64,000 nucleotides of DNA. Source: Candidatus Levybacteria bacterium RIFCSPLOWO2_12_FULL_41_12 (lineage in GTDB: Bacteria; Patescibacteriota; Microgenomatia; Levybacterales; UBA12049). Positions within the stretch are counted from its first letter, which is position 1, and each line of letters opens with the position of its first letter. The notes under the pieces are model-generated. The model was not told where the DNA came from, made no database searches, and saw nothing but the letters and a program-made list of their open reading frames with translations. Shown here in pieces: positions 5,781 through 56,088 of this stretch. The stretch lies in assembly GCA_001784155.1 (NCBI GenBank), contig MFPL01000002.1, forward strand, positions 34,012-98,011. The letters run 5' to 3'. The translations under genes and the position numbers were made by a program.

Positions 5781-6414
5781 AGATTTGGAAGGAATGACAA
5801 AAGAGGAGAAAGTCAAACAGATTATTTCTAGGCTTGAAAAGCTTTTTCCGGGCTCAAAGATTGCGCTTAACTACTCTTCTCCTTGGGAACTTTTCGTAGC
5901 AGTGGTGCTGTCAGCACAAACCACAGACAAACAGGTTAATGTGGTAACACATGATTTGTTTGCGAAATATAAAACTCTAGAAGACTACGTTAATACTCCA
6001 CTAGAGGAGTTTCAAAACGACATAAAAAGAATCGGGCTTTTTAGAGGAAAAGGAAAGAGTATAAAGCTCACAGCTGATATCGTTTATAAAAGCTACAGTG
6101 GCAAACTACCGGACTCGATGGAAAAGCTTCTAGAGCTTCCAGGGGTAGGAAGAAAAACAGCAAACGTTTTGCTTGGAAATATCTACGGTAAATCTGAAGG
6201 AATAGCTGTAGACACGCACGTAAAGAGACTTGCAAAATTATTTGGGCTGACGGATGAGACTGATCCTAACAAGATCGAGCGCGATCTCATGGAGATAACT
6301 CCGAAGAAAGACTGGTTTATGATTACCTATCTGTTAATTGATTACGGACGGAAATATTGCACTGCGAGGTGTAAACACACAGACTGCCCACTTAAAAACT
6401 ACATAATAAAATGA
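5743..6414 (+). CDS. nth: Endonuclease III (DNA glycosylase/AP lyase)
   Basis: HhH-GPD motif LPGVGRKTANVLL. C-terminal 4Fe-4S cluster CTARCKHTDCPLKNY (C-x6-C-x2-C-x5-C). The true start may be the internal Met at 5794, since the listed start overlaps the upstream gene by 38 nt. Ends with TGA overlapping the ATG of the next gene (ATGA). Confidence 0.9.
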   Translation: MKKIRKLPLKKSKDLEGMTKEEKVKQIISRLEKLFPGSKIALNYSSPWELFVAVVLSAQTTDKQVNVVTHDLFAKYKTLEDYVNTPLEEFQNDIKRIGLFRGKGKSIKLTADIVYKSYSGKLPDSMEKLLELPGVGRKTANVLLGNIYGKSEGIAVDTHVKRLAKLFGLTDETDPNKIERDLMEITPKKDWFMITYLLIDYGRKYCTARCKHTDCPLKNYIIK

Positions 6415-9329: not shown

Positions 9330-9605
9330 TTATTTTTCCCAGAACTTGATTTGGCCAATTACTAAAGCGCTGGTAAAAAGGGAGTAAATAAAAATATATG
9401 AAGAGTCGGTAAGAAAATACCCCAAGTCTACAAACGCTTTGTTTTCTGTCAGTCTTAACAAATAGCCTAACGAGAAAACAGCAATCGGCATAACTATAAT
9501 TGCCGAAAAACCAATATCTTTCTTAAATCTTCTGAAAAAGAACAATAAAGACAAGGAATACGTAAGAAAAACAACAGAAATTACGAGAACTTGATAGAAA
9601 AACAT
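9330..9605 (-). CDS. Small membrane protein, hypothetical
   Basis: 91 aa, three hydrophobic segments. Confidence 0.4.
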   Translation of the reverse strand: MFFYQVLVISVVFLTYSLSLLFFFRRFKKDIGFSAIIVMPIAVFSLGYLLRLTENKAFVDLGYFLTDSSYIFIYSLFTSALVIGQIKFWEK

Positions 9606-9671
9606 TCTCCGATTGTAGATTTTAAATATTTATATACAAGAGGCGAAATTCGGGGGCAATTATAGCAGAAG

Positions 9672-10007
9672 TTATTTTGCGGCGATCATGGAGATTTCTA
9701 TTTTTGCTCCTAGGGGAAGTTCTTTAACAGCGACAGTTTCTCTTGCTGGATATGGTTCTTTGAAATAGCTTGCATAGGTTTCATTAACTTTTTCGTAAAG
9801 CTCCATATCGGTTAGGTAAATGGTAGTTTTAACTACGTTTTCAAAATTCAATCCTTCCTTTTCAAGGATAGATTTGAGGTTTGTCATTACTTGATGCGTT
9901 TGTTCTTCTACAGTTCCTTCCAAAAGCTTTCCATCTTTGAGGTAAACCTGGCCGGATGTAAAAACGAGTCCGTTTTTTGAAACTGATGGCGAAAATGGTA
10001 ACGACAT
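9672..10007 (-). CDS. ridA: RidA/YjgF/TdcF-family reactive-intermediate deaminase
   Basis: Characteristic C-terminus LPLGAKIEISMIAAK and overall 111-aa length. Confidence 0.85.
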   Translation of the reverse strand: MSLPFSPSVSKNGLVFTSGQVYLKDGKLLEGTVEEQTHQVMTNLKSILEKEGLNFENVVKTTIYLTDMELYEKVNETYASYFKEPYPARETVAVKELPLGAKIEISMIAAK

Positions 10008-10032
10008 GAGGAAATTTTACTCCTTTTGCCTT

Positions 10033-10446
10033 CTATTTGCCAGAGTTAAGTCTTAAATATTTTTTGTGTCTTCTTATTAAAATAAGTAAAACAAATATAA
10101 TGTTTAATAAAACTATCGGAACGGAATAAAATAAGTTGTATATATCCCACTTTTGTCCCATCCCAAGCACAAAAACCTCTAAGCATGTAACAAAAGCCAT
10201 TACTGAAACTGGTATCCAGAAAAAGAGGAAAAAGATTATTCCCAGTCTTCTTAAAAATCCAAAAAAAGATTTTGTATGTTTTAGCGAATGGTAAACGATG
10301 AAAACAAGACACAAAATGGCAATAATGATGGAGGGAATTAAAAAGGGAGCCATCATTTTCTGCAATATAGAATCAGTAAAAGAATAAATCAGTATTACGA
10401 AACTAGAAGCCCACAAAAACGGAAAAGTTAAGATTGGCTTAATCAT
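10033..10446 (-). CDS. Membrane protein, hypothetical
   Basis: The listed ORF is longer. The ATG at 10446 (MIKPILTF...) lies 6 nt downstream of a TATAAT box, making it the likely start. Four hydrophobic helices. Confidence 0.5.
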   Translation of the reverse strand: MIKPILTFPFLWASSFVILIYSFTDSILQKMMAPFLIPSIIIAILCLVFIVYHSLKHTKSFFGFLRRLGIIFFLFFWIPVSVMAFVTCLEVFVLGMGQKWDIYNLFYSVPIVLLNIIFVLLILIRRHKKYLRLNSGK

Positions 10447-10550
10447 GGGGCAATTATAACCCTTCGACTGGGCTTCCTTCAAGTCTTCAGGGTAAACAGG
10501 TGTAAAGTGAACTATTGACAACAGTATATACAAAGTATATACTGTTAAAT

Positions 10551-10850
10551 ATGAATACTGCTGTAATAAACATTAAAACAAATCCCGAAGTTAAAGCTAA
10601 GGCTCAAAAAATTGCTGAAGAACTCGGCTTTAGTCTTAGTTCCCTAATAAATGGATATCTAAGAAGCCTTGTGAAGACAAAGGCTGTGCATTTCAATACA
10701 AGTGAGAAGCCGACAGACTATTTAATTCAAGCGCTCAAGGAATCAGAAAAAGATAGAAGAGCAGGAAGAATCGTTTCTTTTAAGAATCTTAAAGATGAGA
10801 TGGATTATCTTGACAAAATGATCGCGGATGATAAAAATAAAAAGAATTGA
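10551..10850 (+). CDS. RelB/DinJ-family antitoxin
   Basis: N-terminus MNTAVINIKTNPEVKAKAQKIAEELGFSLSSLINGYL is the DinJ/RelB ribbon-helix-helix type. Overlaps the downstream toxin gene. Putative promoter TTGACA-N15-TATATA-8-ATG. Confidence 0.7.
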   Translation: MNTAVINIKTNPEVKAKAQKIAEELGFSLSSLINGYLRSLVKTKAVHFNTSEKPTDYLIQALKESEKDRRAGRIVSFKNLKDEMDYLDKMIADDKNKKN

Positions 10851-11097
10851 ATATTCTAGAAAGTTTGATAAAGATTTAAAAAAGTCCCCAACCAAAATTA
10901 AAATAGCATTTAAAAAAAGACGGGAAATTTTCCAGCAAAATCAATTCCATCCGTTGCTTAACAACCATTTACTGACAGGAAACCTTAAGGGATACAGAAG
11001 CATAAATATTACAGGTGATTGGCGAGCAATTTATTCTGAAAGAAATGGTGTAATTACTTTTGAAATTTTAGGGACACATAGCATGCTTTATAAATAA
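10828..11097 (+). CDS. RelE/YafQ-family mRNA interferase toxin
   Basis: 89 aa. IEYSRKFDKDLKK...HPLLNNHLLTGNLKGYRSINITGDWRAIY matches the RelE/YafQ/ParE-superfamily core. Overlaps the antitoxin by 23 nt. Confidence 0.75.
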   Translation: MIKIKRIEYSRKFDKDLKKSPTKIKIAFKKRREIFQQNQFHPLLNNHLLTGNLKGYRSINITGDWRAIYSERNGVITFEILGTHSMLYK

Positions 11098-11222
11098 ACC
11101 ATGTCATTAATAAGAAATAAATCACTGAGTAAAAAGCGTAAAAGAGCAATAGCTTTTGCGGGGTGGCGAAGAAATATTGGAGCAAGAGAGAAAATTATTG
11201 CAAAAGAACTTAGAGATAAATT

Positions 11223-11330
11223 GGGGCAATTATAGCACCCTACTTCACTTCGGTTTCACTCAGTGTAAACCCTTCGACTAGGCTCAGGGCAAGCACCCCA
11301 CTTCACTTCGGTCTAACTCAGTGTAAACGC
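11223..11330. repeat. Intergenic repeat block: GGGGCAATTATAGC core, then two ~35 bp tandem copies of (C)ACCCYACTTCACTTCGGTYTMACTCAGTGTAAAC separated by a CCTTCGACTAGGCTCAGGGCAAGC unit
   Basis: Direct reading. Copy 1 at 11236-11270, copy 2 at 11294-11328 (31/35 identical). The spacer is a variant of the dispersed CCCTTCGACTG.GCTCAGG repeat. Confidence 0.6.
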
Positions 11331-11449
11331 TGTAGGCTTCCACCGACGCTAAAGCTTTGGCGGACAAGACGAGGGGCAAGGATAGAAATTCCAAAATCTA
11401 TTTTAGTAAATTTGATAATAGAAGTGTTTTGATGTAACATACTTCCCAA

Positions 11450-37465: not shown

Positions 37466-39076
37466 CTATTCGTTTTCTCTAAAATGTTTTAGTCTGATAA
37501 TCTTAACGACTGAGAAATTCCACTCAGCGTCTATCTCGCTTCTGCCGAATCCTGCTATTTCCCACTTAGCTTGACCTAATGGCTCACAGGGAAGCGTCTC
37601 GCAAACTATCAGGAGTTGGTCTGTAACTGTCTTCCTTTCCGGGTCCAAAGCCGGCGTTTCGATTACAGTAGGTTCTTTCCCTGCGAGTTTGAAGAAATAT
37701 CTATATGCATAGTCAGAGTTACCCCCCGTCACTATAGCAAAATTAAATGGCCGCTCTCCTGCAGTAGATAAAACGAGATTGGAAATATCTCTAATCTGTT
37801 TTACCTGCTGATTTTGACCTCTTTTGACCGGAGTATTATGAAGACTCATAAAAGCTAGAATACCAAGCAATAAAACCGCACTGAGTCGCATTAGAGATGG
37901 GTTTATGTTTCTAAACCTAGTCTCCCAAAGCTTCGAAACGAAGTTACCTACCAGAAGAAAAGGTAAGGGGAAAATTATTCCTAAGTAATAATCGTAAACA
38001 TCTTTATTGTAAAAGCCAAAAAGCACTAGGGGAACAAAAAACCAAAGAAAAAGGAAAAGAGATTTCTTAGAAAATACATCTCCCTTCCTAAGCAACGAAA
38101 CAAAAAGGGTGGTTGATAAAACAGCCAAAATAATTGCAAATACCATCCATAAGAACAGCGCTCCGTTACTATATTCGTAGAAATGCGCGGGGAGTGGATA
38201 ATTTGCTACAAGACCTGCAAAAAGCCTTTCGAAGACGTGCCAGACTTGAGGAACAAAAGAGATTCCTAAACCCGTTTCTTCCGAGGACAGAATGAATCTC
38301 AATATATTTTTTGTGTTTAATAGATCGTGGCGGAACTCAAAAAGCAGAAAAGGCAAAAAGCCCATAACAAATCCCAAGAAAACGGAGATAGAGTTCAGCG
38401 CAAAACGCATTGCTTTGTTTATAAATCTGTCCGAGTGACCCAGAAACGCAGTTGCCGCGACATACAAGAACATAACCACTCCCATGAAAGACGCTAAGTA
38501 ATGAAGCTGCATGAGTATTCCGAAAGAAAAGCCAGACCCGATAAGAAAAAGCTTTTTATTTCGCGCTATCCCTTTATATAAAAGGTATAGCGTAACTATT
38601 GAGAAGAAAGGAACGATGTTGGGATTCCATGAAGACTTGGAGTATATAATTACAACCGGGGAGATAGCATACAGGAATGAGGCAATAAGTCCTGCCCTTT
38701 CGCCAAAAAATTCTTTACCGATTTTATAGACTAGAAAAACTGTCGCGATTCCAAATAACGCGACCATAATTGATGGGCCGACAGGATTGTACTTAGATAA
38801 GTAAAGGAATGGGGCGGCAAAATAGTAATATATCGGACCCAAGAAGAAACCTCCCACAGAAGATGCAGGACCCAGTAAAGTCAGGTGCCCATGCAAAATG
38901 TCATAAATCGCAAGCATATCCCTTCCCTCGTCTCCCAGAAAAGTCATATATTGCTCGACCTTGTAGAGCCGCAGAAAAGATGCGAATAGAAGAATTAGTG
39001 TCAATATGACATGCGGAGGCCTTAACCTACCCATTTTTGAAGCTTGGAAAGAGAAGAAACGTGCCATCTTTTCCAT
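37466..39076 (-). CDS. GT39/GT83-type (ArnT/PMT-like) polyprenyl-phosphate-sugar-dependent glycosyltransferase
   Basis: Multi-TM. N-terminal FLGDEGRDMLAIYDILHGHL loop typical of ArnT/PMT family GT-C enzymes. The start may be the internal Met at 39034, since the listed start overlaps the upstream GT2 gene by 55 nt. Confidence 0.85.
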   Translation of the reverse strand: MEKMARFFSFQASKMGRLRPPHVILTLILLFASFLRLYKVEQYMTFLGDEGRDMLAIYDILHGHLTLLGPASSVGGFFLGPIYYYFAAPFLYLSKYNPVGPSIMVALFGIATVFLVYKIGKEFFGERAGLIASFLYAISPVVIIYSKSSWNPNIVPFFSIVTLYLLYKGIARNKKLFLIGSGFSFGILMQLHYLASFMGVVMFLYVAATAFLGHSDRFINKAMRFALNSISVFLGFVMGFLPFLLFEFRHDLLNTKNILRFILSSEETGLGISFVPQVWHVFERLFAGLVANYPLPAHFYEYSNGALFLWMVFAIILAVLSTTLFVSLLRKGDVFSKKSLFLFLWFFVPLVLFGFYNKDVYDYYLGIIFPLPFLLVGNFVSKLWETRFRNINPSLMRLSAVLLLGILAFMSLHNTPVKRGQNQQVKQIRDISNLVLSTAGERPFNFAIVTGGNSDYAYRYFFKLAGKEPTVIETPALDPERKTVTDQLLIVCETLPCEPLGQAKWEIAGFGRSEIDAEWNFSVVKIIRLKHFRENE

Positions 39077-40185
39077 ATAAATATATTATACATAGTATAA
39101 CTGTAAGGAATAACAAACAGACCAATTGCAAGTATTAAGAACAATTGTCTCGTTTCCTCTCCGAAAAGATGAGTTCCAATAAATAATACTGTTGTAATTA
39201 TCACGAGAGATCCAGCAGAAACTAGATTAAACTGAGGGAATTTTAGAAGAACTCTCAATGGGTGAGTGATTTTATAGCTTCCGAATGCCCAGAAGTTATT
39301 GATAGTAAAGTTCCAAATAATTGAAAGCTCGGCTCCTATTGCGCCTGCTGCCGCGGGATGAAACCCCCGCCTAAAAAGAACTTCAAGCGTAATCGCGTTT
39401 ATTATATAGCCAACGAATCCGGTTATAGCGTATTTCAGAAAAGGCGAGTGCACAAGCTCTCTTGCCCGAGCAACAGTAACATACTTAAGAAGGTTTAATA
39501 TATATTCAGCTGGCGCGATTTTCGACCTTCCCAGAAATCTGTCCTTAGCATGAAAGGGAACTTCAGTTATTCTAAACCCATCTGCAACGGCTTTATGAAG
39601 AAAAGCTACTTGAAAAGTGTACCCCGCATATTTTGAAAGCTTTGACTTCTCCTTCAGGAATACTTCCTTTTTGATCGCTCTGTAACCACCAGTCCAATCA
39701 TGAATCCAGAACCTCATTAGTATTCCTTTTACCATTAGGTTACCTATGAGAGACAATATCTTTCTGTGAGTTCCCCAATTGTCAGGAATTCCTCCGCCTT
39801 TTATGTATCTGCTCCCTACTACAAAATCGTATCCTTCATCGATTTTTTTCAAGAATTCCGGAATTTTCTGAGGGTCGTGGAAAAAATCAGCATCCATCTC
39901 AAACATTATGTCCGCCCCCATTTCATCGACTGCATAATTCATTGCTCTTATGTAGGCAGCACCGAGCCCCTTCTTTGGACCCGTTGTGAGACCTATATTC
40001 TTCCACTTTTTCATCATATTTTTTATTTCTTCGGCAGTACCGTCCGGAGAGTTATCGTCTGCGATCAATATATACATATCGTATTTTTTCAATTCTGGAA
40101 AAATCTCATTTTCAATAAGAGGGACTAGCTTCTGAATATTCTCTTTTTCGTTATAAGTTGGGATAATTATTACTACCTTCTTCAT
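39022..40185 (-). CDS. GT2 polyprenyl-phosphate sugar synthase (DPM1/ArnC-like) fused to a C-terminal GtrA-like 4-TM domain
   Basis: IIIPTYNEKENI...ADDNSPDGT...DADF catalytic motifs. Four C-terminal TM helices (GtrA type). Confidence 0.85.
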   Translation of the reverse strand: MKKVVIIIPTYNEKENIQKLVPLIENEIFPELKKYDMYILIADDNSPDGTAEEIKNMMKKWKNIGLTTGPKKGLGAAYIRAMNYAVDEMGADIMFEMDADFFHDPQKIPEFLKKIDEGYDFVVGSRYIKGGGIPDNWGTHRKILSLIGNLMVKGILMRFWIHDWTGGYRAIKKEVFLKEKSKLSKYAGYTFQVAFLHKAVADGFRITEVPFHAKDRFLGRSKIAPAEYILNLLKYVTVARARELVHSPFLKYAITGFVGYIINAITLEVLFRRGFHPAAAGAIGAELSIIWNFTINNFWAFGSYKITHPLRVLLKFPQFNLVSAGSLVIITTVLFIGTHLFGEETRQLFLILAIGLFVIPYSYTMYNIFIWKRWHVSSLSKLQKWVG

Positions 40186-41134
40186 TAATTTTTAAAGTAT
40201 TGTATTGTTTTTAGAAGACCTTCTTCAAGAGGCACTTTTGGTTCCCAATCCAAAAGAGTCTTTGCTTTTGAAATGTCGGGTTTTCTACGAATCGGATCAT
40301 CTTCTGGTAATTTCTCTGAGAAGATTATTTCGCTACTTGAAACGGTTAATTTTTTAACAAGCTCTGCGAATTCAAGAACCGTATGTTCCTCCCCGGAGCC
40401 GATGTTTACCACTTCGCCTTTTGTTCCATCTCCAAACATTAGTCTTACAAGCCCCAAAACAGTATCTTCTACAAAACACAGTGATCTGGTCTGACTACCA
40501 TCTCCAAAAATCGTTATAGGTTCTCCGCGCAAAGCCTGTGTAATGAAAATTATTATCATTCGCATATCTTCCTTCATCATTCTTGGCCCATATGTGTTGA
40601 ATATCCTTGCAATTTTAGTATCTAGTTTTTTATTTCTTGAAAAATATGCAGTTATGGTTTCTCCAAATCTTTTAGATTCATCGTATATAGAGCGCGGACC
40701 GGTCGTCGAAACATTTCCTCTGTATTCTTCTTTTTGGGGATGCTCAAGCGGATCACCGTAAACCTCAGAGGAAGACGCAAACAAGAACTTTGCGTTATTT
40801 TTTTCTGCAAATTTAAGAAGCTCAAGCGTACCGGTAGTGTTGGCGAGCATGGTTTCAAGAGGCAAGGAGTGATAACTTATCTTGCTATGATGGTTTGGCG
40901 ATGCCGGAGATGCTAGATGAAAAACGTGAGTCACCTTAAAGTCCAATTTCAGCGGTTCACAAATGTCATGATTTATTGACGAAAAGCTTTTGTTATCCCT
41001 AAGATGACTTATGTTTTCAAGACTACTGGTTAGGAAATTGTCAACACAAACTACAGAGTAACCCTCTTTTAGAAGCTTATCGCAAAGATGCGAACCCAAG
41101 AAACCGGCTCCCCCGGCGACTAAAACTGTTTCCA

Positions 41135-41135
<1 letters not shown>
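40185..41135 (-). CDS. uxs: UDP-glucuronate decarboxylase (UDP-xylose synthase-like SDR)
   Basis: VLVAGGAGFLGSHLCDKLLKEGYSVVCVDNFLTSS Rossmann N-terminus and YxxxK, typical of the UXS/ArnA-decarboxylase clade. Confidence 0.75.
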
Positions 41136-43062
<1,927 letters not shown>

Positions 43063-43102
43063 AAACTTTTGCCTGCCCGCCGAAGCTTTGTGCGAAGGCG
43101 GG

Positions 43103-44392
43103 TCATCTGCCTACCCCTATGTAAGAAAATCCAGCTTTTACTATTTCCGAAGGCTCATAAATGTTACGCGTATCAATAATACTTAAGGTCTTCATTCGCT
43201 TCTTAATCTCCCCTAAATCAATTTCTTTAAAATCATTCCAATCAGTTAATACTATTAATAGATCTGCGCCGTCGGCAACCGAATACATGTCTCTTGCATA
43301 TTCAATTTTTGGCAAAACTGTCTTGGCGTTACCCATTGCTTGAGGATCAAAAGCACAAATTTGCGCTCCGTCATTTACTAAGAGCGTTATGATGTCTATC
43401 GCTGGTGCGTCTCTCATGTCATCAGTATTGGGTTTAAACGCTAATCCTAAGATTCCAATTTTTTTACCTCGCAGCTCTCCAAGAGCTTTTCTTGCTTTTT
43501 TTACAACATCCCTTCGCATCTGGCTATTTATGTTTTCTACTTCCTCAAGAAGAGAGAAAGCATAATCATTATCTTTCGCAATTGTAATCAAAGCTTTAAC
43601 GTCTTTAGGAAAACAGCTGCCGCCGTACCCGGGTCCTGGAGAAAGAAATAAACTGCCAATTCTCTTGTCCATGCCAATTCCTTCCAAAACCTTCAGCGCA
43701 TCAGCTCCCAGTAATTCAGAAAGCTTTGCTATGGCATTTGCATAGGAAATTTTAAGAGCCAGGAATGAATTTGCGGCGTACTTTATAAGCTCTGCCGTCT
43801 CAAAATTGGTCAAAACAACAGGCGCCTTAATCGGCTCGTGTAATTTTATAAGAAGCTTCTGTGCGCGGCTGTCCGAAGCTCCAATTACAATTCTGTCTGG
43901 GTTAACCGTATCAGAAATTGCGCTTCCTTCACGCAGAAATTCAGGAACTGACGCATAGCTTACTTCCGCTCCCTTAGGCTTTGATTCGGCCAAAATTCTT
44001 TGTACTTTTTTATTCGTTCCGGCTGGAACGGTACTTTTTGTTGCAACAACTGTGTAGCCCTTAAGGTTTTTGCCTATTTTTTCTGCCACGTCAAGAACTG
44101 TTGATAGATCTGCGTCTCCTGTTGTTGTTGAAGGTGTTCCGACTGCAATGAAAACAACGTCAGCCTCCGGTATTACTTTATCAAAAGACAGGGTAAACAT
44201 TAAACGCCCTGCATCAATGTTCTTTTTAACAAGCTCGCTTAGGCCGGGCTCAAAGATTGGGATTATTCCTTTTTTTAAGTTCTCTATTTTCTCAGGCGTA
44301 TGTCCAACAACATTCACCGTGTTTCCTAAATCCGCAAATACAGCTGCTGTTACTAAACCCACGTATCCGTGTCCGATGAAAGTTATAGTCAT
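43103..44392 (-). CDS. ugd: UDP-glucose 6-dehydrogenase family (UDP-glucose/GDP-mannose dehydrogenase)
   Basis: N-terminal GxGYVG Rossmann. Catalytic Cys in GGSCFPKD. C-terminal UDP-binding domain. Confidence 0.85.
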   Translation of the reverse strand: MTITFIGHGYVGLVTAAVFADLGNTVNVVGHTPEKIENLKKGIIPIFEPGLSELVKKNIDAGRLMFTLSFDKVIPEADVVFIAVGTPSTTTGDADLSTVLDVAEKIGKNLKGYTVVATKSTVPAGTNKKVQRILAESKPKGAEVSYASVPEFLREGSAISDTVNPDRIVIGASDSRAQKLLIKLHEPIKAPVVLTNFETAELIKYAANSFLALKISYANAIAKLSELLGADALKVLEGIGMDKRIGSLFLSPGPGYGGSCFPKDVKALITIAKDNDYAFSLLEEVENINSQMRRDVVKKARKALGELRGKKIGILGLAFKPNTDDMRDAPAIDIITLLVNDGAQICAFDPQAMGNAKTVLPKIEYARDMYSVADGADLLIVLTDWNDFKEIDLGEIKKRMKTLSIIDTRNIYEPSEIVKAGFSYIGVGR

Positions 44393-44396
44393 ATGG

Positions 44397-45281
44397 TTAG
44401 GGGTTTAATTGGTTTTTTGATTCCCCAATTCCTTCCTTAAAAGATCGCATCCTAATTCCCAGCTTTCCTATTTTACCATTATTAAGCTCCAAATTAAAAG
44501 GTCTCGGAGCGCTTCCCTTAAAAAATTCTTCTCTAGTTATGGGATTTATTAGCCTTAGATCAAAATCAAAGGTTTGGGCAATTAAGATAGCGGCATCATA
44601 GGGAGATAAAGCCTGACCCCCTACCGCATGGTAAATCCCTACAGCGTCAATGGAAATTAATTCTTTTATTACAGGAACCAAATCGTCTATAAAAGTGGGG
44701 CAGAAAACGTGATCTGTCACTGCTTTTACAGATTCTCCGTTAATAAGCTTCTCTTTAATCGATCTGGAAAAATCCCCTCTTTTATCAGACTCTGCTCTAT
44801 AGGGATATGCAATCCTGAGTATTGCATAGTCGGCCCCGCTTCGCTCAACTACCCTCTCACCTTCATACTTTGTCTTCGCGTACCAATTTATTGGATTCGG
44901 AATGTCCTCTTCGTCGTAAGAATCTCCTTCTGGTTTTTCTCCGTCAAAAACAAAGTCCGTTGAAACATAAATTATCTTCTTGCCTGTTTCCCGGCAAACT
45001 TCAGCTACGTTTTTCGGCCCCAGTACATTAACTCTCCACGCTTCACCTTGCTCTCCCAGGTCTTTATCCAGCTCACAGCTGTCCACATTGGTTTTCGCAG
45101 CTAAATGCAATACAAAACTTGCGTCTTTATAATCCTTTATTGAAATCAGCGTCTCGGGCTTTGTTATATCTACACCGTTTGAAGTACTAAGGCCTACGAA
45201 TTCATATTTATCGGATAAAAGTTCTTCGATTCTGGACCCAACCAAACCCGAAAGTCCGAATGCTATAATCTGGGGCTTCAT
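44397..45281 (-). CDS. rfbD: dTDP-4-dehydrorhamnose reductase
   Basis: RmlD-type SDR. GLSGLVGSRI N-terminus and YxxxK. Confidence 0.8.
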   Translation of the reverse strand: MKPQIIAFGLSGLVGSRIEELLSDKYEFVGLSTSNGVDITKPETLISIKDYKDASFVLHLAAKTNVDSCELDKDLGEQGEAWRVNVLGPKNVAEVCRETGKKIIYVSTDFVFDGEKPEGDSYDEEDIPNPINWYAKTKYEGERVVERSGADYAILRIAYPYRAESDKRGDFSRSIKEKLINGESVKAVTDHVFCPTFIDDLVPVIKELISIDAVGIYHAVGGQALSPYDAAILIAQTFDFDLRLINPITREEFFKGSAPRPFNLELNNGKIGKLGIRMRSFKEGIGESKNQLNP

Positions 45282-46288
45282 TTTTTGTACTGTTCTTCGT
45301 AATATTTCTTGTACTCTCCGCTTTTAACTTTTTTCCACCAGGCCTCATTCGTCTTATACCATTCGACCGTGGTCTTAAGCCACTCCTCAAAAGTATGCCG
45401 AGGCTCCCACCCGAGCTCGTTTTTGGCTTTTGAGAAGTCTACTGCATAACGACGATCATGTCCTGGCCTATCTTTGACAAATTCTATTACTGTCTCGTCT
45501 TTTCCTAGAAGTCCTGCGATTTTTTTTGCAACCTCAAGATTATTTATATCCTCCGTCATTCCTCCAAGGCAATATGTTTCTCCGATTTTCCCACGGCTAA
45601 GCACAAGATCTATGCCCCGACAGTGATCTTCAACATACAGCCAATCCCTCACATAGAGTCCGTCACCGTAAATTGGGATTTTCTTCTCCTCAAGAACATT
45701 GGTTATAGCAAGGGGTATGATTTTCTCTGGGAATTGATACGGGCCAAAATTGTTTGAACAGTTAGTTATAGTTACCGGAAAATTATATGTATGGAAATAT
45801 GCGCGGACTAAATGATCTGAGGAAGCTTTGCTTGCAGAGTAAGGACTTCTGGGATCGTAGCACGTGCTCTCGTTAAATTTTTCATCCGAATCAAGTTCAA
45901 GCTGACCAAACACCTCGTCTGTCGAAACATGATGAAACCTCTTAATATTATTCTTTCTTGCTGAATCCAGAAGAACCTGAGTGCCTAGCACATTAGACAT
46001 TACAAAAGGAGCTGGTCCTGAAATGGATCTGTCAACGTGTGTTTCTGCAGCGAAATGGACCACTGCATCGACTCCCTCCATAGCGCTATTTACCTCATTT
46101 ACGTTAGCTATGTCTCCTTTTACAAACCTGTAATTGGGGTTTTTCTCAATGCTTATTAAGTTTTCTAAATTTCCGGCATAAGTAAGTGCGTCAAAGTTAA
46201 CGACTTGATCTTCCGGATGATTCTTAAACCAGTAGAGGATAAAGTTTGACCCTATAAAACCCGCTCCGCCTGTTACAAGAAGTCTCAT
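45278..46288 (-). CDS. rfbB: dTDP-glucose 4,6-dehydratase
   Basis: RLLVTGGAGFIGSNF and the conserved TDE/YxxxK catalytic pattern. Confidence 0.9.
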   Translation of the reverse strand: MRLLVTGGAGFIGSNFILYWFKNHPEDQVVNFDALTYAGNLENLISIEKNPNYRFVKGDIANVNEVNSAMEGVDAVVHFAAETHVDRSISGPAPFVMSNVLGTQVLLDSARKNNIKRFHHVSTDEVFGQLELDSDEKFNESTCYDPRSPYSASKASSDHLVRAYFHTYNFPVTITNCSNNFGPYQFPEKIIPLAITNVLEEKKIPIYGDGLYVRDWLYVEDHCRGIDLVLSRGKIGETYCLGGMTEDINNLEVAKKIAGLLGKDETVIEFVKDRPGHDRRYAVDFSKAKNELGWEPRHTFEEWLKTTVEWYKTNEAWWKKVKSGEYKKYYEEQYKK

Positions 46289-47026
46289 TTAGCTTAATTC
46301 CCCGTTTTTAATTTTCTCAGCTATTGTGTTGTTCGCTCGCAATAACTCATCAAACGACGTTCCCGAGTCTACCCACCAATCCAACATGACACACTCCATT
46401 GTTCCTTCCGAAACATAGCGGTTATTCAAATCCGTTACTTCAAGCTCGCCTCTTGCGGAAGGCTTAAGTTTTTTTATGAAATCAAAAACTCTTTGGTCAT
46501 ACATATATATTCCTGTTTGAGCTATGTTAGATTTTGGATGATCGGGTTTTTCCTCAATTGATACAACTTTTCCCTTACTATCGATTTCAATTACACCGTA
46601 ATGTTTTGCGTCTCCGGGAATTTGGGTCCCAAAAACTCTTGCTCCTTTATCTTGTTTTTTAAATTCATCTGCAACCGGTTTCAAATTAAAATTAAAAATG
46701 TTATCTCCTAAAATTACAAGAGTTTTGTCTTTTTCGGCAAAGCTTTCTCCAAGCGCAATTCCCTGCGCAATTCCTCCCGCTTCCTGCTGAATTTCATAAG
46801 TAAGTTTTAATCCAAAATCACTTCCGTTTTTAAGAAGATTCATAAACGCTCCTACATGGGGCGGACCGGTAATAATCAGGACATCTTCGATTCCAGCTTT
46901 TTGCATCGATTCAAGAGGATAATAAATCATTGGTTTATTGTAGATAGGAAGCAGATGTTTATTAGTTACCCAGGTCAAAGGCCTGAGTCTTGTAGCATTT
47001 CCTCCTGCTAAAATTATTCCTTTCAT
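46289..47026 (-). CDS. rfbA: Glucose-1-phosphate thymidylyltransferase-like sugar nucleotidyltransferase
   Basis: MKGIILAGGNATRLRPLT signature. Confidence 0.85.
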   Translation of the reverse strand: MKGIILAGGNATRLRPLTWVTNKHLLPIYNKPMIYYPLESMQKAGIEDVLIITGPPHVGAFMNLLKNGSDFGLKLTYEIQQEAGGIAQGIALGESFAEKDKTLVILGDNIFNFNLKPVADEFKKQDKGARVFGTQIPGDAKHYGVIEIDSKGKVVSIEEKPDHPKSNIAQTGIYMYDQRVFDFIKKLKPSARGELEVTDLNNRYVSEGTMECVMLDWWVDSGTSFDELLRANNTIAEKIKNGELS

Positions 47027-47072
47027 AAATAAATTTTTAAAGCTCCGTTTATAAGAAATATTCTACTATACT

Positions 47073-47106
47073 AATTACAATTTAGTCAAAGAAATTGTAA
47101 TTTAGT
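47073..47106. promoter_or_regulatory. Repeat pair AATTACAATTTAGT-N6-AATTGTAATTTAGT in the divergent rfbA / dehydratase-like promoter region, a putative operator
   Basis: Direct reading. Arms are both inverted (AATTACAATT vs AATTGTAATT) and direct (TTTAGT). TATAAT at 47118-47123 lies 6 nt upstream of ATG 47130. Confidence 0.4.
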
Positions 47107-47129
47107 ACGATATATCTTATAATACTACT

Positions 47130-47930
47130 ATGGGTTTTAACGAGCAACCTTCAACAGTTAGTTATTTAGATTCTCATATAGATACGATGTTAAAAGCACC
47201 TGAATTAACCGGCATAAGAACCTGGTATGAAGGGCAATTAGCAAATCTTGGAGAAATAACCGTAACCCCAGCTCCCCTTACAGACGGAGATAGATGGAGA
47301 AGAGAATTAACTTCAGCCGGTGAGGTAGACAAGGTAGACGGAGCTTTTTTTACTCTCCAGGGACAAGCAATAACAAAATACAATCCTGATGGATCTGTTT
47401 CATCCGGATGGACTCAGCCGGGGCTACTCCAAAAAGAAGGAGAAATTGAAATACCAACCCCAGAAGGATCAAGAAAAATAAAATTCAGTGGGGCTATAGG
47501 CATAATAAAAGACGCAAATGGAAATGTTCTTTTAACTGTAGCTCAAGAACCTTTTGCTCAAACACCCAAAAGAGCTCTTGCAAGAACCCCTTTCCAAACA
47601 TCCTCTACAAAACTTCAGGGAATTGTGGATGGCAACAGAGATCTTGACCCTACGCTTTACGATTTAATTGCGAGTGTTGCTACGGGAAAAAGTCCATCTG
47701 AAATATTCCAAATGGGTGATGTAAGCCTTTTTCCATTATCATATGCCGACGCTAACAGAATTGCTGCAACAAATATAGGATTTGTGCTTGCCGTTACCGA
47801 TGCAAAACTTGCTAAAAAACTTGAAAGTGATGGGAAAAATAGATGGTGTAGCATTGAAGAAGTTAAAGGGTTAACAAAAGCAGGTCTTCTTAATGGGCTT
47901 ACTGCCACTGCAATTTTTGCAACTTCATAA
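47130..47930 (+). CDS. Single-domain NDP-hexose 2,3-dehydratase-like protein
   Basis: Blocks GWTQPGLL, GNVLLTVAQEPFAQ, TPFQTSSTKLQ and C-terminal RWCSIEEVKGL resemble one repeat of EvaA-type hexose 2,3-dehydratases (normally two tandem repeats, ~470 aa). Confidence 0.5.
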   Translation: MGFNEQPSTVSYLDSHIDTMLKAPELTGIRTWYEGQLANLGEITVTPAPLTDGDRWRRELTSAGEVDKVDGAFFTLQGQAITKYNPDGSVSSGWTQPGLLQKEGEIEIPTPEGSRKIKFSGAIGIIKDANGNVLLTVAQEPFAQTPKRALARTPFQTSSTKLQGIVDGNRDLDPTLYDLIASVATGKSPSEIFQMGDVSLFPLSYADANRIAATNIGFVLAVTDAKLAKKLESDGKNRWCSIEEVKGLTKAGLLNGLTATAIFATS

Positions 47931-50456: not shown

Positions 50457-51308
50457 TCAGAAACCAGCTTCTTTTCTCTCTTTTATATAGTTTCTTACCA
50501 AAAATCCAGCTCCCGAAAGCAGTAAAACAATCCCTATAATAACTAAGAATTTCGAAAGAAGCGAATAGGGATTAAAAGTCTTTTCAGACAAAACTTCTGA
50601 TTTTACGGGAGTTGGTGTATCTGTTTGATTATTAGGCAAACTAGTATTTGAAGCTAAACTTTTATCCGTTGATGAATTTGATTTCGAACTTGAAGATTTA
50701 ACGGGCGTGGGGGTCTTCGTGGGAGTGGGTTTGCTCGTTGGTGTTGGCGTTTTCGTAGGAGTTGGGGTTTTTGTGGGCGTCGGGGTCTTAGTCGGAGTGG
50801 GCGTTGGGTCGGGAGTAGGGGTGGGTGTTGAGAAAACGGATGAGGAATTGTTTGAAGAATTCTTCGATTGAATCGTAAAAATTACCCATTCGCTACTTCC
50901 GTCTGTCTTTCTTCCTCCGCTCTGGTTCTCTTCGGGCTTAGCCAAGCCCCCCTTATCTCCATATGAAACCTCATCTACAACTGATTCGTTTGATGCCAAT
51001 ATAAGTTTTATCGTGTCTCCACCGTTGTTTAGTTTGTTGCTCCAATCAAAAGAGGCAAACCCTCCGCCATTAATAGTTCCCGTTAAATTAAGCTCATTTG
51101 TATCGTTATAATCTCTAATTTTATAACCAGAAAGATCAATAGCTTCCTCTCCGCTGTTATAAATTTCTATCCAATCACTAGTTGTTGCCGAAGAAAATTC
51201 ATTTATTAATACGTCTGCGTAGGATTTTAAAGGAGGAAAAATAAAAATTAGTAAAAATATAGATAAAAAGAAAGGTAATGACAGCAGACGCCTAAAAAAT
51301 CTTTTCAC
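50457..51308 (-). CDS. Cell-surface protein with lamin-tail domain (LTD), Pro-Thr repeat linker and C-terminal TM anchor
   Basis: Signal peptide. LTD core VLINEFSSATTSDWIEIYNSGEEAIDLSGYKIRD. Linker (PTPTKT)n encoded by the tandem DNA repeat at ~50700-50830. C-terminal hydrophobic helix. Confidence 0.7.
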   Translation of the reverse strand: MKRFFRRLLSLPFFLSIFLLIFIFPPLKSYADVLINEFSSATTSDWIEIYNSGEEAIDLSGYKIRDYNDTNELNLTGTINGGGFASFDWSNKLNNGGDTIKLILASNESVVDEVSYGDKGGLAKPEENQSGGRKTDGSSEWVIFTIQSKNSSNNSSSVFSTPTPTPDPTPTPTKTPTPTKTPTPTKTPTPTSKPTPTKTPTPVKSSSSKSNSSTDKSLASNTSLPNNQTDTPTPVKSEVLSEKTFNPYSLLSKFLVIIGIVLLLSGAGFLVRNYIKERKEAGF

Positions 51309-54637: not shown

Positions 54638-55648
54638 TCAACCTTGAAGCAATTTTATTGCTTGGCCTGTTTTGTAACTTTTCGCGTGTTTTAAATAACC
54701 AAGATATGACTGGATAGTCTGATTTAGCGAAAAATCAGAGATTCTCCCTGTTTTGTATTCATCAAGCTTATCTGATATCTTTCTAAACATCCTTTTCTTT
54801 GTTTTTGTTCTTGGCAAAACGTAGTGGGGAAGTATGACGTAACCTAAAAAATCAACTCCCCATGAAAGTCTTCTCATAATAATCTTGCCTGGATTAAGTC
54901 TCAGCTTAAGATTTTCTTCCAAGAAGACTGGTATACTAGTATACCAGTCTAATAATCTACTCCTATTGGATTCTAAAATTAAAAAGTCATCAGCGTAACG
55001 CAGGTAATATTTCACTCTTAGACTCTGCTTTATAAATTGGTCCAGTTCGTTTAAGTAAATATTTGCAAAAATCTGACTTGTCAGATTGCCAAGAGGAATT
55101 CCTTTCCCTCTTCCTTGTTCCACGCTAAAACTTTGAATAACTTCTTTTAAAAGCCAGAGAATATCTTCATCTTCTATTCTCTTTTTTAGAAGTTCGAACA
55201 AAATCTTATGATCAACATTTGCAAAGAATTTTTTAATATCAAGTTTTAGAGCAAAGCAGTTTCTTGTATAATTCTTGCTCACTTTTCTCGCAAATAACTC
55301 AAGCCTTTCAACTCCTTTATGCGTTCCTTTATCTAAACGACAAGAATATGAATCATAAATAAAACTTTTATCAAAGACAGAATATAAATATTTATATAAA
55401 AGGTGATGTAAAACCCTATCCGAAACACAGGCTTTATGGATGTGCCGTCTTTTCGGATCGTTAACGAAGAATTCCTCGTATTTTCCATGTTGGTAAGTTT
55501 TGTTTTTCAAAGACAAGTGCAGAGAGAACAAATTGTCTTCCAAATTCCGCTCGAAAACTTGTAAATCCAATCTCTTCTTCTTTCCTTTTTTAAATTCAGA
55601 AAAGGCTTGAAAAAGATTTTCTATTTGTATAAGATCTTCATAGTTCAT
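54638..55648 (-). CDS. DGR-type reverse transcriptase
   Basis: Start at ATG 55648 (MNYEDLIQ...). Motifs DSYSCRLDKGTHKG (DGR-like SxxxRxxKGTH), GIPLGNLTSQIFANIYLNELD (LGNLTSQ replaces the usual QG...SP, a DGR hallmark), and YADDFLIL (YxDD). The listed 373-aa ORF start is an artefact of reading through the upstream (CA)n tract. Confidence 0.9.
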   Translation of the reverse strand: MNYEDLIQIENLFQAFSEFKKGKKKRLDLQVFERNLEDNLFSLHLSLKNKTYQHGKYEEFFVNDPKRRHIHKACVSDRVLHHLLYKYLYSVFDKSFIYDSYSCRLDKGTHKGVERLELFARKVSKNYTRNCFALKLDIKKFFANVDHKILFELLKKRIEDEDILWLLKEVIQSFSVEQGRGKGIPLGNLTSQIFANIYLNELDQFIKQSLRVKYYLRYADDFLILESNRSRLLDWYTSIPVFLEENLKLRLNPGKIIMRRLSWGVDFLGYVILPHYVLPRTKTKKRMFRKISDKLDEYKTGRISDFSLNQTIQSYLGYLKHAKSYKTGQAIKLLQG

Positions 55649-55672
55649 ATGAGTAACATCAATAAACCTGTT

Positions 55673-55698
55673 CACACACACACACATACACACACACC
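55673..55698. repeat. Dinucleotide microsatellite (CA)7-TA-(CA)5, 25 nt upstream of the RT start
   Basis: Direct reading: cacacacacacacatacacacacacc. It lies between TR and RT, flanked by the GC-rich inverted repeat GCCCGCC...GGCGGGC at 55711-55747. Confidence 0.8.
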
Positions 55699-55737
55699 GA
55701 TAGTAATTTAGCCCGCCTGCCAGCACCTGACCGCAGG

Positions 55738-56088
55738 GATGGCGGGCAGGATATCCCAATCTTTACCAAGCTCTACGAATTTTATAAAACGCTTAGCTCA
55801 ATTATTCCATCTTTCCCTAAGACAAAACGCTACACGCTAGGTCAAAAGTTGGATAACACAACCTTGGACATACTCGAATTCTTGTTTGCAATACCGTTAA
55901 GCAGTAATAAGCTGATTATCCTTCAAAAAATAAGCGTAAAAGTCGATTTATTAAAAATTCTAATCCGTCTCTCTAAAGACACCCAGATAATTAATAACAA
56001 AGACTGCTTAGAGCTTGAAACAAAACTTTCTGAAATAGGCAAAATGCTTGGAGGATGGATCAGAGCCTCCAAGCAAAATACCACTTAA
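55738..56088 (+). CDS. Avd-like (accessory variability determinant, four-helix-bundle) protein encoded antisense to the DGR, with no canonical in-frame start
   Basis: C-terminus LSEIGKMLGGWIRASKQ closely parallels BPP-1 Avd's AEVGRILGSWIARVNRK. Upstream block IPSFPKTKRYTLGQKL resembles the PF05635-family N-terminal region. The open frame extends to 55738 with no ATG/GTG. The nearest ATG (55739) is in a different frame, and the track's TTG at 55849 would truncate the fold. Confidence 0.55.
   Translation, partial: DGGQDIPIFTKLYEFYKTLSSIIPSFPKTKRYTLGQKLDNTTLDILEFLFAIPLSSNKLIILQKISVKVDLLKILIRLSKDTQIINNKDCLELETKLSEIGKMLGGWIRASKQNTT

Follow-up and report, generated by a model that had tools for sequence, protein, structure and literature searches.

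A remote single-domain relative of EvaA-type sugar 2,3-dehydratases in the rml region of a Candidatus Levybacteria surface-sugar locus

The closest described systems to the one reported here are the nucleoside diphosphate (NDP)-hexose 2,3-dehydratases of antibiotic clusters, namely EvaA from Amycolatopsis orientalis and its PF03559 kin TylX3, OleV, Gra-orf27 and SpnO, which have a Nudix-type fold without a Nudix box. These enzymes are approximately 450 to 480 amino acids (aa) long and consist of two tandem repeats, or domains, which in EvaA are thought to stem from a gene duplication that left one active and one remnant pocket. Two residues of the active pocket A of EvaA, E139 and E190, are both essential, and pocket B is a non-catalytic deoxythymidine diphosphate (dTDP)-sugar site (PMC8987622, review). 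Here, we analyzed a 64,000-nt stretch of contig MFPL01000002.1 from Candidatus Levybacteria bacterium RIFCSPLOWO2_12_FULL_41_12, hereafter called the window. Its gene X (window positions 47130 to 47930, plus strand) is an open reading frame (ORF) with an ATG start, coding for a 266-aa protein. Profile comparisons indicate that X is a highly diverged single-domain branch of this known superfamily, of which half-size PF03559 proteins were already known, and the protein probably acts on a cell-surface deoxysugar precursor.

A first-pass annotation of this DNA, made from the sequence alone, had already recognized a 266-aa ORF with four EvaA-type blocks, and the translation indeed contains SGWTQPGLLQ, LLTVAQEPFAQ, RTPFQTSSTKLQG and NRWCSIEEVKGL. 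Its starting position, 47073, is correct for the upstream repeat described below but not for gene X, which begins at 47130. The annotation also held that characterized enzymes are two-domain proteins, in agreement with the literature (PMC8987622), and drew attention to the half-size of X. The protein does contain one repeat in a single chain, where EvaA-type enzymes have the active pocket A and the remnant pocket B in tandem; half-size as such is not new, since PF03559 proteins of that kind were already in databases.

Protein X has a counterpart of 100% identity in Candidatus Levybacteria bacterium RIFOXYA1_FULL_41_10, a genome of the candidate phyla radiation (CPR)/Patescibacteria, where it is labelled hypothetical. 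Among 5.8 billion proteins, its family comprises 44 clusters at 90% identity, with lengths of 228 to 290 aa except for one 161-aa fragment, and the few named members are from Levybacteria. The family is currently labelled only as 'hypothetical protein' and goes undetected by Pfam and NCBIfam; protein X itself matched neither database, Pfam giving nothing even at E ≤ 10. An exhaustive profile search of 1.84 billion representatives retrieved just 101 proteins at E ≤ 1e-3, most of them single-domain proteins of 260 to 300 aa, with the canonical two-domain dehydratases appearing only at E-values of 1e-7 to 1e-3. Some relatives have other architectures. In P0049 (499 aa), the X-type domain has been duplicated in tandem independently, and seven proteins of 540 to 670 aa (P0052, P0057, P0059, P0061, P0063, P0064 and P0097) carry this domain fused to an unknown N-terminal region of approximately 300 aa, which has no Pfam match. 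Other candidate relationships were discarded. A phmmer search with the single X sequence against PDB gave nothing above background, its matches being Cas1 (E 0.087) and ribosomal protein S7, and the matches of ten family members to DRAT (PF07357), all at E ≥ 0.0097, were taken as noise.

The relationship to the dehydratases emerged from profile comparisons. With the X-family alignment profile searched against PDB, EvaA (4j7g) was found at E 8.8e-9, one profile segment matching both EvaA repeats. Using hhalign, the family aligned with 13 two-domain dehydratases over 212 columns, essentially a whole repeat (97.5% probability, E 8e-12), and with the single-domain PF03559 proteins of approximately 200 aa over 195 columns (99.5%, E 1.3e-22). 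The latter proteins (P0120, P0122, P0128 and P0134), which score 58 to 108 bits on PF03559, are the nearest to the X family by profile, and they resemble X in having a single repeat. Because of these matches, we consider X to be a single-domain protein that is distantly related to the repeat of the 2,3-dehydratases. The proposal of the first-pass annotation that X corresponds to one EvaA-type repeat is therefore upheld as a remote homology, seen by profiles and structure only. To our knowledge, neither the X family nor the group of ~200-aa single-domain PF03559 proteins includes a characterized member.

The predicted structure of X (AlphaFold2, mean predicted local distance difference test score of 90.9) had EvaA as its best structural match and shows an EvaA-like Nudix fold. 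No match to PF00908 was found in X, whose fold is not that of a cupin, and the Nudix box (GX5EX7REUXEEXGU) is not present, TPFQTSSTKLQGIVDG / RTPFQTSSTKLQGIVDGNRDLDP being found at the equivalent position; PF00293 was not matched either. X and the EvaA-type enzymes share the motifs W..W, GxFF, WxQP, EP, [ST]PxQ[AT][ST], NR and RW. They differ in that X is only about 14% identical to EvaA, has an insertion of 16 to 18 residues after WxQP and probably has an Asp, in 'DxNR', in place of E190. Compared with the single-domain PF03559 proteins, X is approximately 60 residues longer, with a helical extension at its N terminus and an insertion within the chain, and has no PF03559 score; both groups have invariant EP(G) and D..(R/K) motifs, and P0120 even has an X-like 'TDANR'.

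These single-domain PF03559 proteins served as intermediates to locate candidate catalytic residues, the proposed correspondence being drawn from sequence alignments. In EvaA, E139 sits in 'QAKMEPGN' and E190 in 'QAEQGSW'. E140-P141 of X align with the invariant E-P-G of the intermediates and, through it, with 'EPGN' of EvaA, so that E140, found in 'QEP' and conserved in at least 90% of the X family, would be the equivalent of E139. Likewise, the invariant D207 of X, in the motif 'ADANR', aligns with the invariant Asp ('QDGGK/QDPGR') of the intermediates, which falls within one position of the Glu in 'SE[QE]GGRF', so that D207 would approximately correspond to E190. Both '[QN]EP' and 'DxNR' are kept throughout the extended X family. 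Counterparts of both EvaA carboxylates are thus probably present in X, which argues for an active enzyme.

Gene X is transcribed divergently from three minus-strand genes, rmlA-rmlB-rmlD, which the first-pass annotation had designated rfbA-rfbB-rfbD, and like the EvaA-type genes it lies beside rmlA and rmlB. The first, at 46289 to 47026, encodes a short RmlA-like sugar-1-phosphate nucleotidyltransferase of 245 aa (NTP_transferase PF00483, E 7e-59; 254 bits on TIGR01207, below the cut-off of 361). The second, at 45278 to 46288, encodes RmlB, the dTDP-glucose 4,6-dehydratase, with 336 aa (476 bits on TIGR01181, above the cut-off of 365). The third, at 44397 to 45281, encodes an RmlD-like 4-ketoreductase of 294 aa (RmlD_sub_bind PF04321, E 7e-58; 194 bits on TIGR01214, below the cut-off of 224). 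An rmlC gene had been reported as missing from this cluster, and this extends to the whole window, where a motif scan, tblastn with four RmlC-family queries (E ≤ 1) and Pfam scans of most ORFs found no RmlC. Other Levybacteria do have members of the RmlC family.

We then compared this region with related loci. In Levybacteria and relatives, the syntenic order is FtsE-FtsX-PcsB-p283-TsaE-Sua5-TsaB-CAP-DUF5656-(variable)-rmlB-(variable)-rmlD-ugd-SDR-gmd-UXS-GT2GtrA-PMT2, where SDR stands for short-chain dehydrogenase/reductase, and the counts below refer to the 41 syntenic loci with a complete DUF5656-to-rmlD interval. Twelve of them have only rmlA-rmlB in this interval, while 10 have rmlA-rmlB-Nudix160, nine have rmlA-Nudix180-rmlB and one has rmlA-Nudix160-rmlB. 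An RmlC-family gene on the strand opposite rmlB is found in five loci (L064, L066, L075, L085 and L086), four of which are without rmlA and two of which carry two extra GT2 genes. X is present in the remaining four: the window and L082, from an identical strain, have the order X-rmlA-rmlB, and L002 and L005 have rmlA-Nudix180-rmlB-X-rmlD. The order rmlB-X-rmlD was also seen in three partial contigs (L003, L006 and L018) and in L021, with inserted inositol-monophosphatase-like and TrpR-like genes. A scan of genome contigs yielded four loci only, none of them linked to rml genes. X never co-occurred with RmlC, nor with the 160-aa Nudix protein within the DUF5656-rmlD interval, numbers that are too small for significance. 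The Nudix proteins of these clusters are canonical Nudix-box hydrolases: the 160-aa type occupies the slot between rmlB and rmlD (L011, L016, L028 and L032, among others), and the 180-aa ADPRase-like type lies between rmlA and rmlB (L002, L005, L020, L022 and L027, among others).

In a neighbor-joining tree of RmlD-like proteins, those linked to RmlC formed a separate basal clade, and the X-bearing loci appeared at two places inside a large RmlC-less clade that includes the window. The RmlD-like proteins of RmlC-less loci may reduce a different 4-keto sugar. Two of the single-domain PF03559 proteins have informative contexts, the flanks of P0134 and P0122 being too short. In L087 and L088, the gene for P0128 has rmlB on one side and rmlD on the other, at a distance of several genes that include Nudix genes; next come several GT2 genes and a gene encoding an RmlA-GT2 fusion, and RmlC is not found in these loci. 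The 601-aa fusion is encoded downstream of rmlD in L087 (positions 9547 to 11352), where four further GT2 genes are present. P0120 adjoins rmlB-FdtA-SDR (L089).

The 103-bp intergenic region between rmlA and X was also analyzed. The palindrome described by the first-pass annotation is exactly as reported: AATTACAATTTAGT (47073 to 47086), CAAAGA and AATTGTAATTTAGT (47093 to 47106). These two arms form a 14-nt direct repeat with two mismatches, and within this direct repeat, which reaches 47106, lies a perfect 11-nt inverted repeat, AATTACAATTT / AAATTGTAATT (47073 to 47083 and 47092 to 47102), with an 8-nt spacer. When the intergenic region was shuffled, a perfect 11-nt inverted repeat arose in approximately 1% of cases, and the window has only five such places. 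A promoter-like site for X is found on the plus strand at 47095 to 47123 (TTGTAA-17-TATAAT, 10 of 12 matches), with 6 nt between its -10 hexamer and the ATG, and another for the rmlA operon on the minus strand at 47060 to 47089 (TTGACT-18-TAGAAT, also 10 of 12). Of the two arms of the inverted repeat, the right one overlaps the -35 hexamer of the plus-strand site and the left one falls in the spacer of the minus-strand site, so an operator role is geometrically plausible for this candidate site. No regulator gene is adjacent to it. Further copies of the palindrome or of its half-sites occurred only at chance counts in the window and in 90 loci, and the paired site was found elsewhere only in L082, whose intergenic region is 100% identical. 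No palindrome was found upstream of X in other loci, despite similar promoter-like sites. Indeed, a TATAAT-like -10 hexamer ends 0 to 10 nt before the start of most X genes (the window, L004, L010, L018, L021 and L083), including X genes that lie between rmlB and rmlD, and a TTGA-type -35 hexamer is present as well in most of them. This suggests that X travels with its own promoter, giving a very short leader or none. We regard X as an accessory gene with its own predicted promoter, one that only some copies of the conserved Levybacteria locus have in their rml part.

Tentatively, and with somewhat less than even confidence, we propose that X is a single-domain EvaA-like enzyme, presumably a homodimer, and that it adds variety to the dTDP-deoxysugar of a surface-glycan locus. 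Two X chains would imitate the two lobes of EvaA and bind the RmlB product, dTDP-4-keto-6-deoxy-D-glucose, which is the likeliest substrate because X and its single-domain PF03559 cousins recur beside or inside rmlB-rmlD. The carboxylate pair E140 and D207 would abstract the C-3 proton, the conserved carboxylates supporting EvaA-type base catalysis at this position, and the likeliest outcome would be the EvaA reaction, with loss of the 2-OH. The product could then be handed to the neighboring RmlD-like reductase, yielding a strain-specific dTDP-deoxysugar variant for the adjacent surface-glycan locus.

Several observations weigh against this proposal. The first-pass annotation had tied its assignment to a match with the PF03559 hidden Markov model; protein X has none, even at E ≤ 10, which formally contradicts it. 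Within the X family, 20 of 43 members matched this model at E ≤ 1, all under the gathering score of 25 bits, the best scoring 24.7 bits, and the matches cover model positions 3 to 74 of 203, the N-terminal third. The residue mapping relies on the intermediates because direct hhalign to the two-domain enzymes gives a different register, in which E140 is three positions off E139 and E190 is paired with a non-conserved Gly. As for gene context, X orthologs that are equally close are unlinked to rml in L001, L004 and L083, and more distant members adjoin mreC in two loci, one of them also with a QRPTase-like gene. In L082, a JGI metagenome contig from the same strain, gene X has an in-frame deletion of 75 bp (L082 positions 6271 to 6341 compared with window positions 47436 to 47510), flanked by AAAAGA microhomology and removing 25 aa (residues 103 to 127); this reflects either a natural loss of function or an error of assembly. 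Moreover, X and rmlC are both missing from 32 of the 41 syntenic loci, so the core pathway does not require X.

The pathway itself also raises difficulties. A 3,4-diketo product needs a 3-ketoreductase or a 3-aminotransferase. While rmlA and rmlB adjoin X, Pfam scans covering most ORFs of the window found no GFO_IDH_MocA 3-ketoreductase or DegT aminotransferase, and neither was seen in homologous loci, a further difference from the antibiotic clusters of EvaA-type enzymes, and a single RmlD-like reductase could not finish such an intermediate. The first-pass annotation had taken the lack of rmlC to point to a 2,6-dideoxysugar, but the rmlC-less state is the norm in this clade with or without X, and it is therefore no pointer by itself. 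With no C-3 reductase or aminase in sight, and with X being rare and dispensable, 2,3-dehydration to a 2,6-dideoxysugar is the weaker part of the proposal, and such a product is only one possibility. Hence, the EvaA-repeat homology and the rml context of the first-pass interpretation stand, while the PF03559 match and the deduction of a 2,6-dideoxysugar lack support in the form given.

Other roles were considered. X could be a Nudix-superfamily accessory protein that is not a dehydratase and that binds NDP-sugars, regulates or hydrolyzes, thereby tuning the dTDP-sugar pool. Sister loci have a 160-aa Nudix-box hydrolase in the rmlB_rmlD slot (10 loci) or the 180-aa ADPRase-like protein between rmlA and rmlB (11 loci), and the lack of co-occurrence of X and the 160-aa protein within the interval would fit such a function. 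Pocket B of EvaA also provides a precedent for a non-catalytic dTDP-sugar site in this fold (PMC8987622). However, X differs from Nudix pyrophosphatases such as NudF and the GDP-mannose hydrolase YffH/NudK in lacking both a PF00293 match and the Nudix box needed for hydrolysis, which makes canonical metal-dependent hydrolysis unlikely. It also has no DNA-binding domain, and its many invariant polar residues, including the probable counterparts of both EvaA carboxylates, argue for EvaA-type catalysis. We consider this accessory role unlikely.

More improbable still is that X acts as a non-cupin substitute for RmlC, or as a 3-epimerase, in which EvaA-type C-3 deprotonation would be followed by re-protonation rather than by loss of water, making RmlA-RmlB-X-RmlD a full route of four enzymes to a 6-deoxyhexose. 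RmlC, the dTDP-4-dehydrorhamnose 3,5-epimerase (PF00908, cupin), would share the substrate and the alpha-proton chemistry of X; fold and sequence are unrelated, the equivalence being a functional analogy only. In its favor, X fills the expected rmlC slot between rmlB and rmlD, the same variable region holds an RmlC-family gene on the strand opposite rmlB-rmlD in the five loci named above, X and RmlC are never in one locus, and a single reductase with no 3-ketoreductase suits an epimerase better than a dehydratase. However, with four X and five RmlC loci in a set of 41, a lack of overlap is close to the chance expectation. With most loci having neither gene and X homologs being rare (44 clusters), X cannot be the general RmlC replacement of the clade. 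The RmlC loci also differ in their extra GT2 genes and in the usual lack of rmlA, so the swap is not one-for-one, and the genome may have an RmlC gene outside the window. Moreover, we know of no Nudix-fold sugar epimerase. The wider version, in which X and perhaps also the ~200-aa single-domain PF03559 proteins would be Nudix-fold epimerases or isomerases displacing the cupin RmlC in CPR clusters, seems just as improbable.

Finally, the rml genes could be incidental neighbors of X, whose substrate would then be some other nucleotide-linked molecule (ADP-ribose or a compound related to NAD, for instance), but this is very unlikely. In its favor, about half of the places where X is found have no connection with sugar nucleotides (L001, L004, L083 and L007 to L010), a QRPTase-like gene lies upstream in L010, and most X genes have their own promoter-like site, as expected of a mobile accessory gene. 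Against it, the insertion of X beside or within rmlB-rmlD is seen in two or more distinct branches of the RmlD tree, two independent single-domain PF03559 lineages show the same placement, and the substrate of the closest characterized homolog is the RmlB product.

The rest of the conserved surface-sugar locus, whose gene order recurs in approximately 40 related loci, extends on the minus strand from 37466 to 44392. It includes ugd (43103 to 44392), an SDR gene (42109 to 43062), gmd (41135 to 42127), a UXS-like SDR gene (40185 to 41135), a gene for a GT2-GtrA polyprenol-phosphate glycosyltransferase (39022 to 40185) and PMT_2 (37466 to 39076). In the conserved FtsEX-PcsB-TsaE neighborhood, a Lamin Tail Domain protein with a long Thr/Pro-rich repeat (TPTPTKTPTPT...) is encoded at 50457 to 51308. 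A likely diversity-generating retroelement is found at 54638 to 56088, with a reverse transcriptase gene on the minus strand (54638 to 55759; PF00078, E 7e-22) and a bAvd-like accessory gene on the plus strand (55849 to 56088; PF22296). A perfect 13-nt inverted repeat lies near 54851 to 54950.

If X did displace RmlC, this would represent non-orthologous displacement of a textbook enzyme through EvaA-type C-3 deprotonation without elimination. As for the EvaA-like enzyme that we tentatively favor, the X family and the ~200-aa PF03559 proteins could show what the dehydratase looked like before its duplication, presumably as a homodimer. The rmlB-rmlD clusters without rmlC or an obvious 3-ketoreductase may likewise reveal an unrecognized surface dTDP-deoxysugar of CPR bacteria, or a different reaction carried out by this scaffold on the RmlB product.

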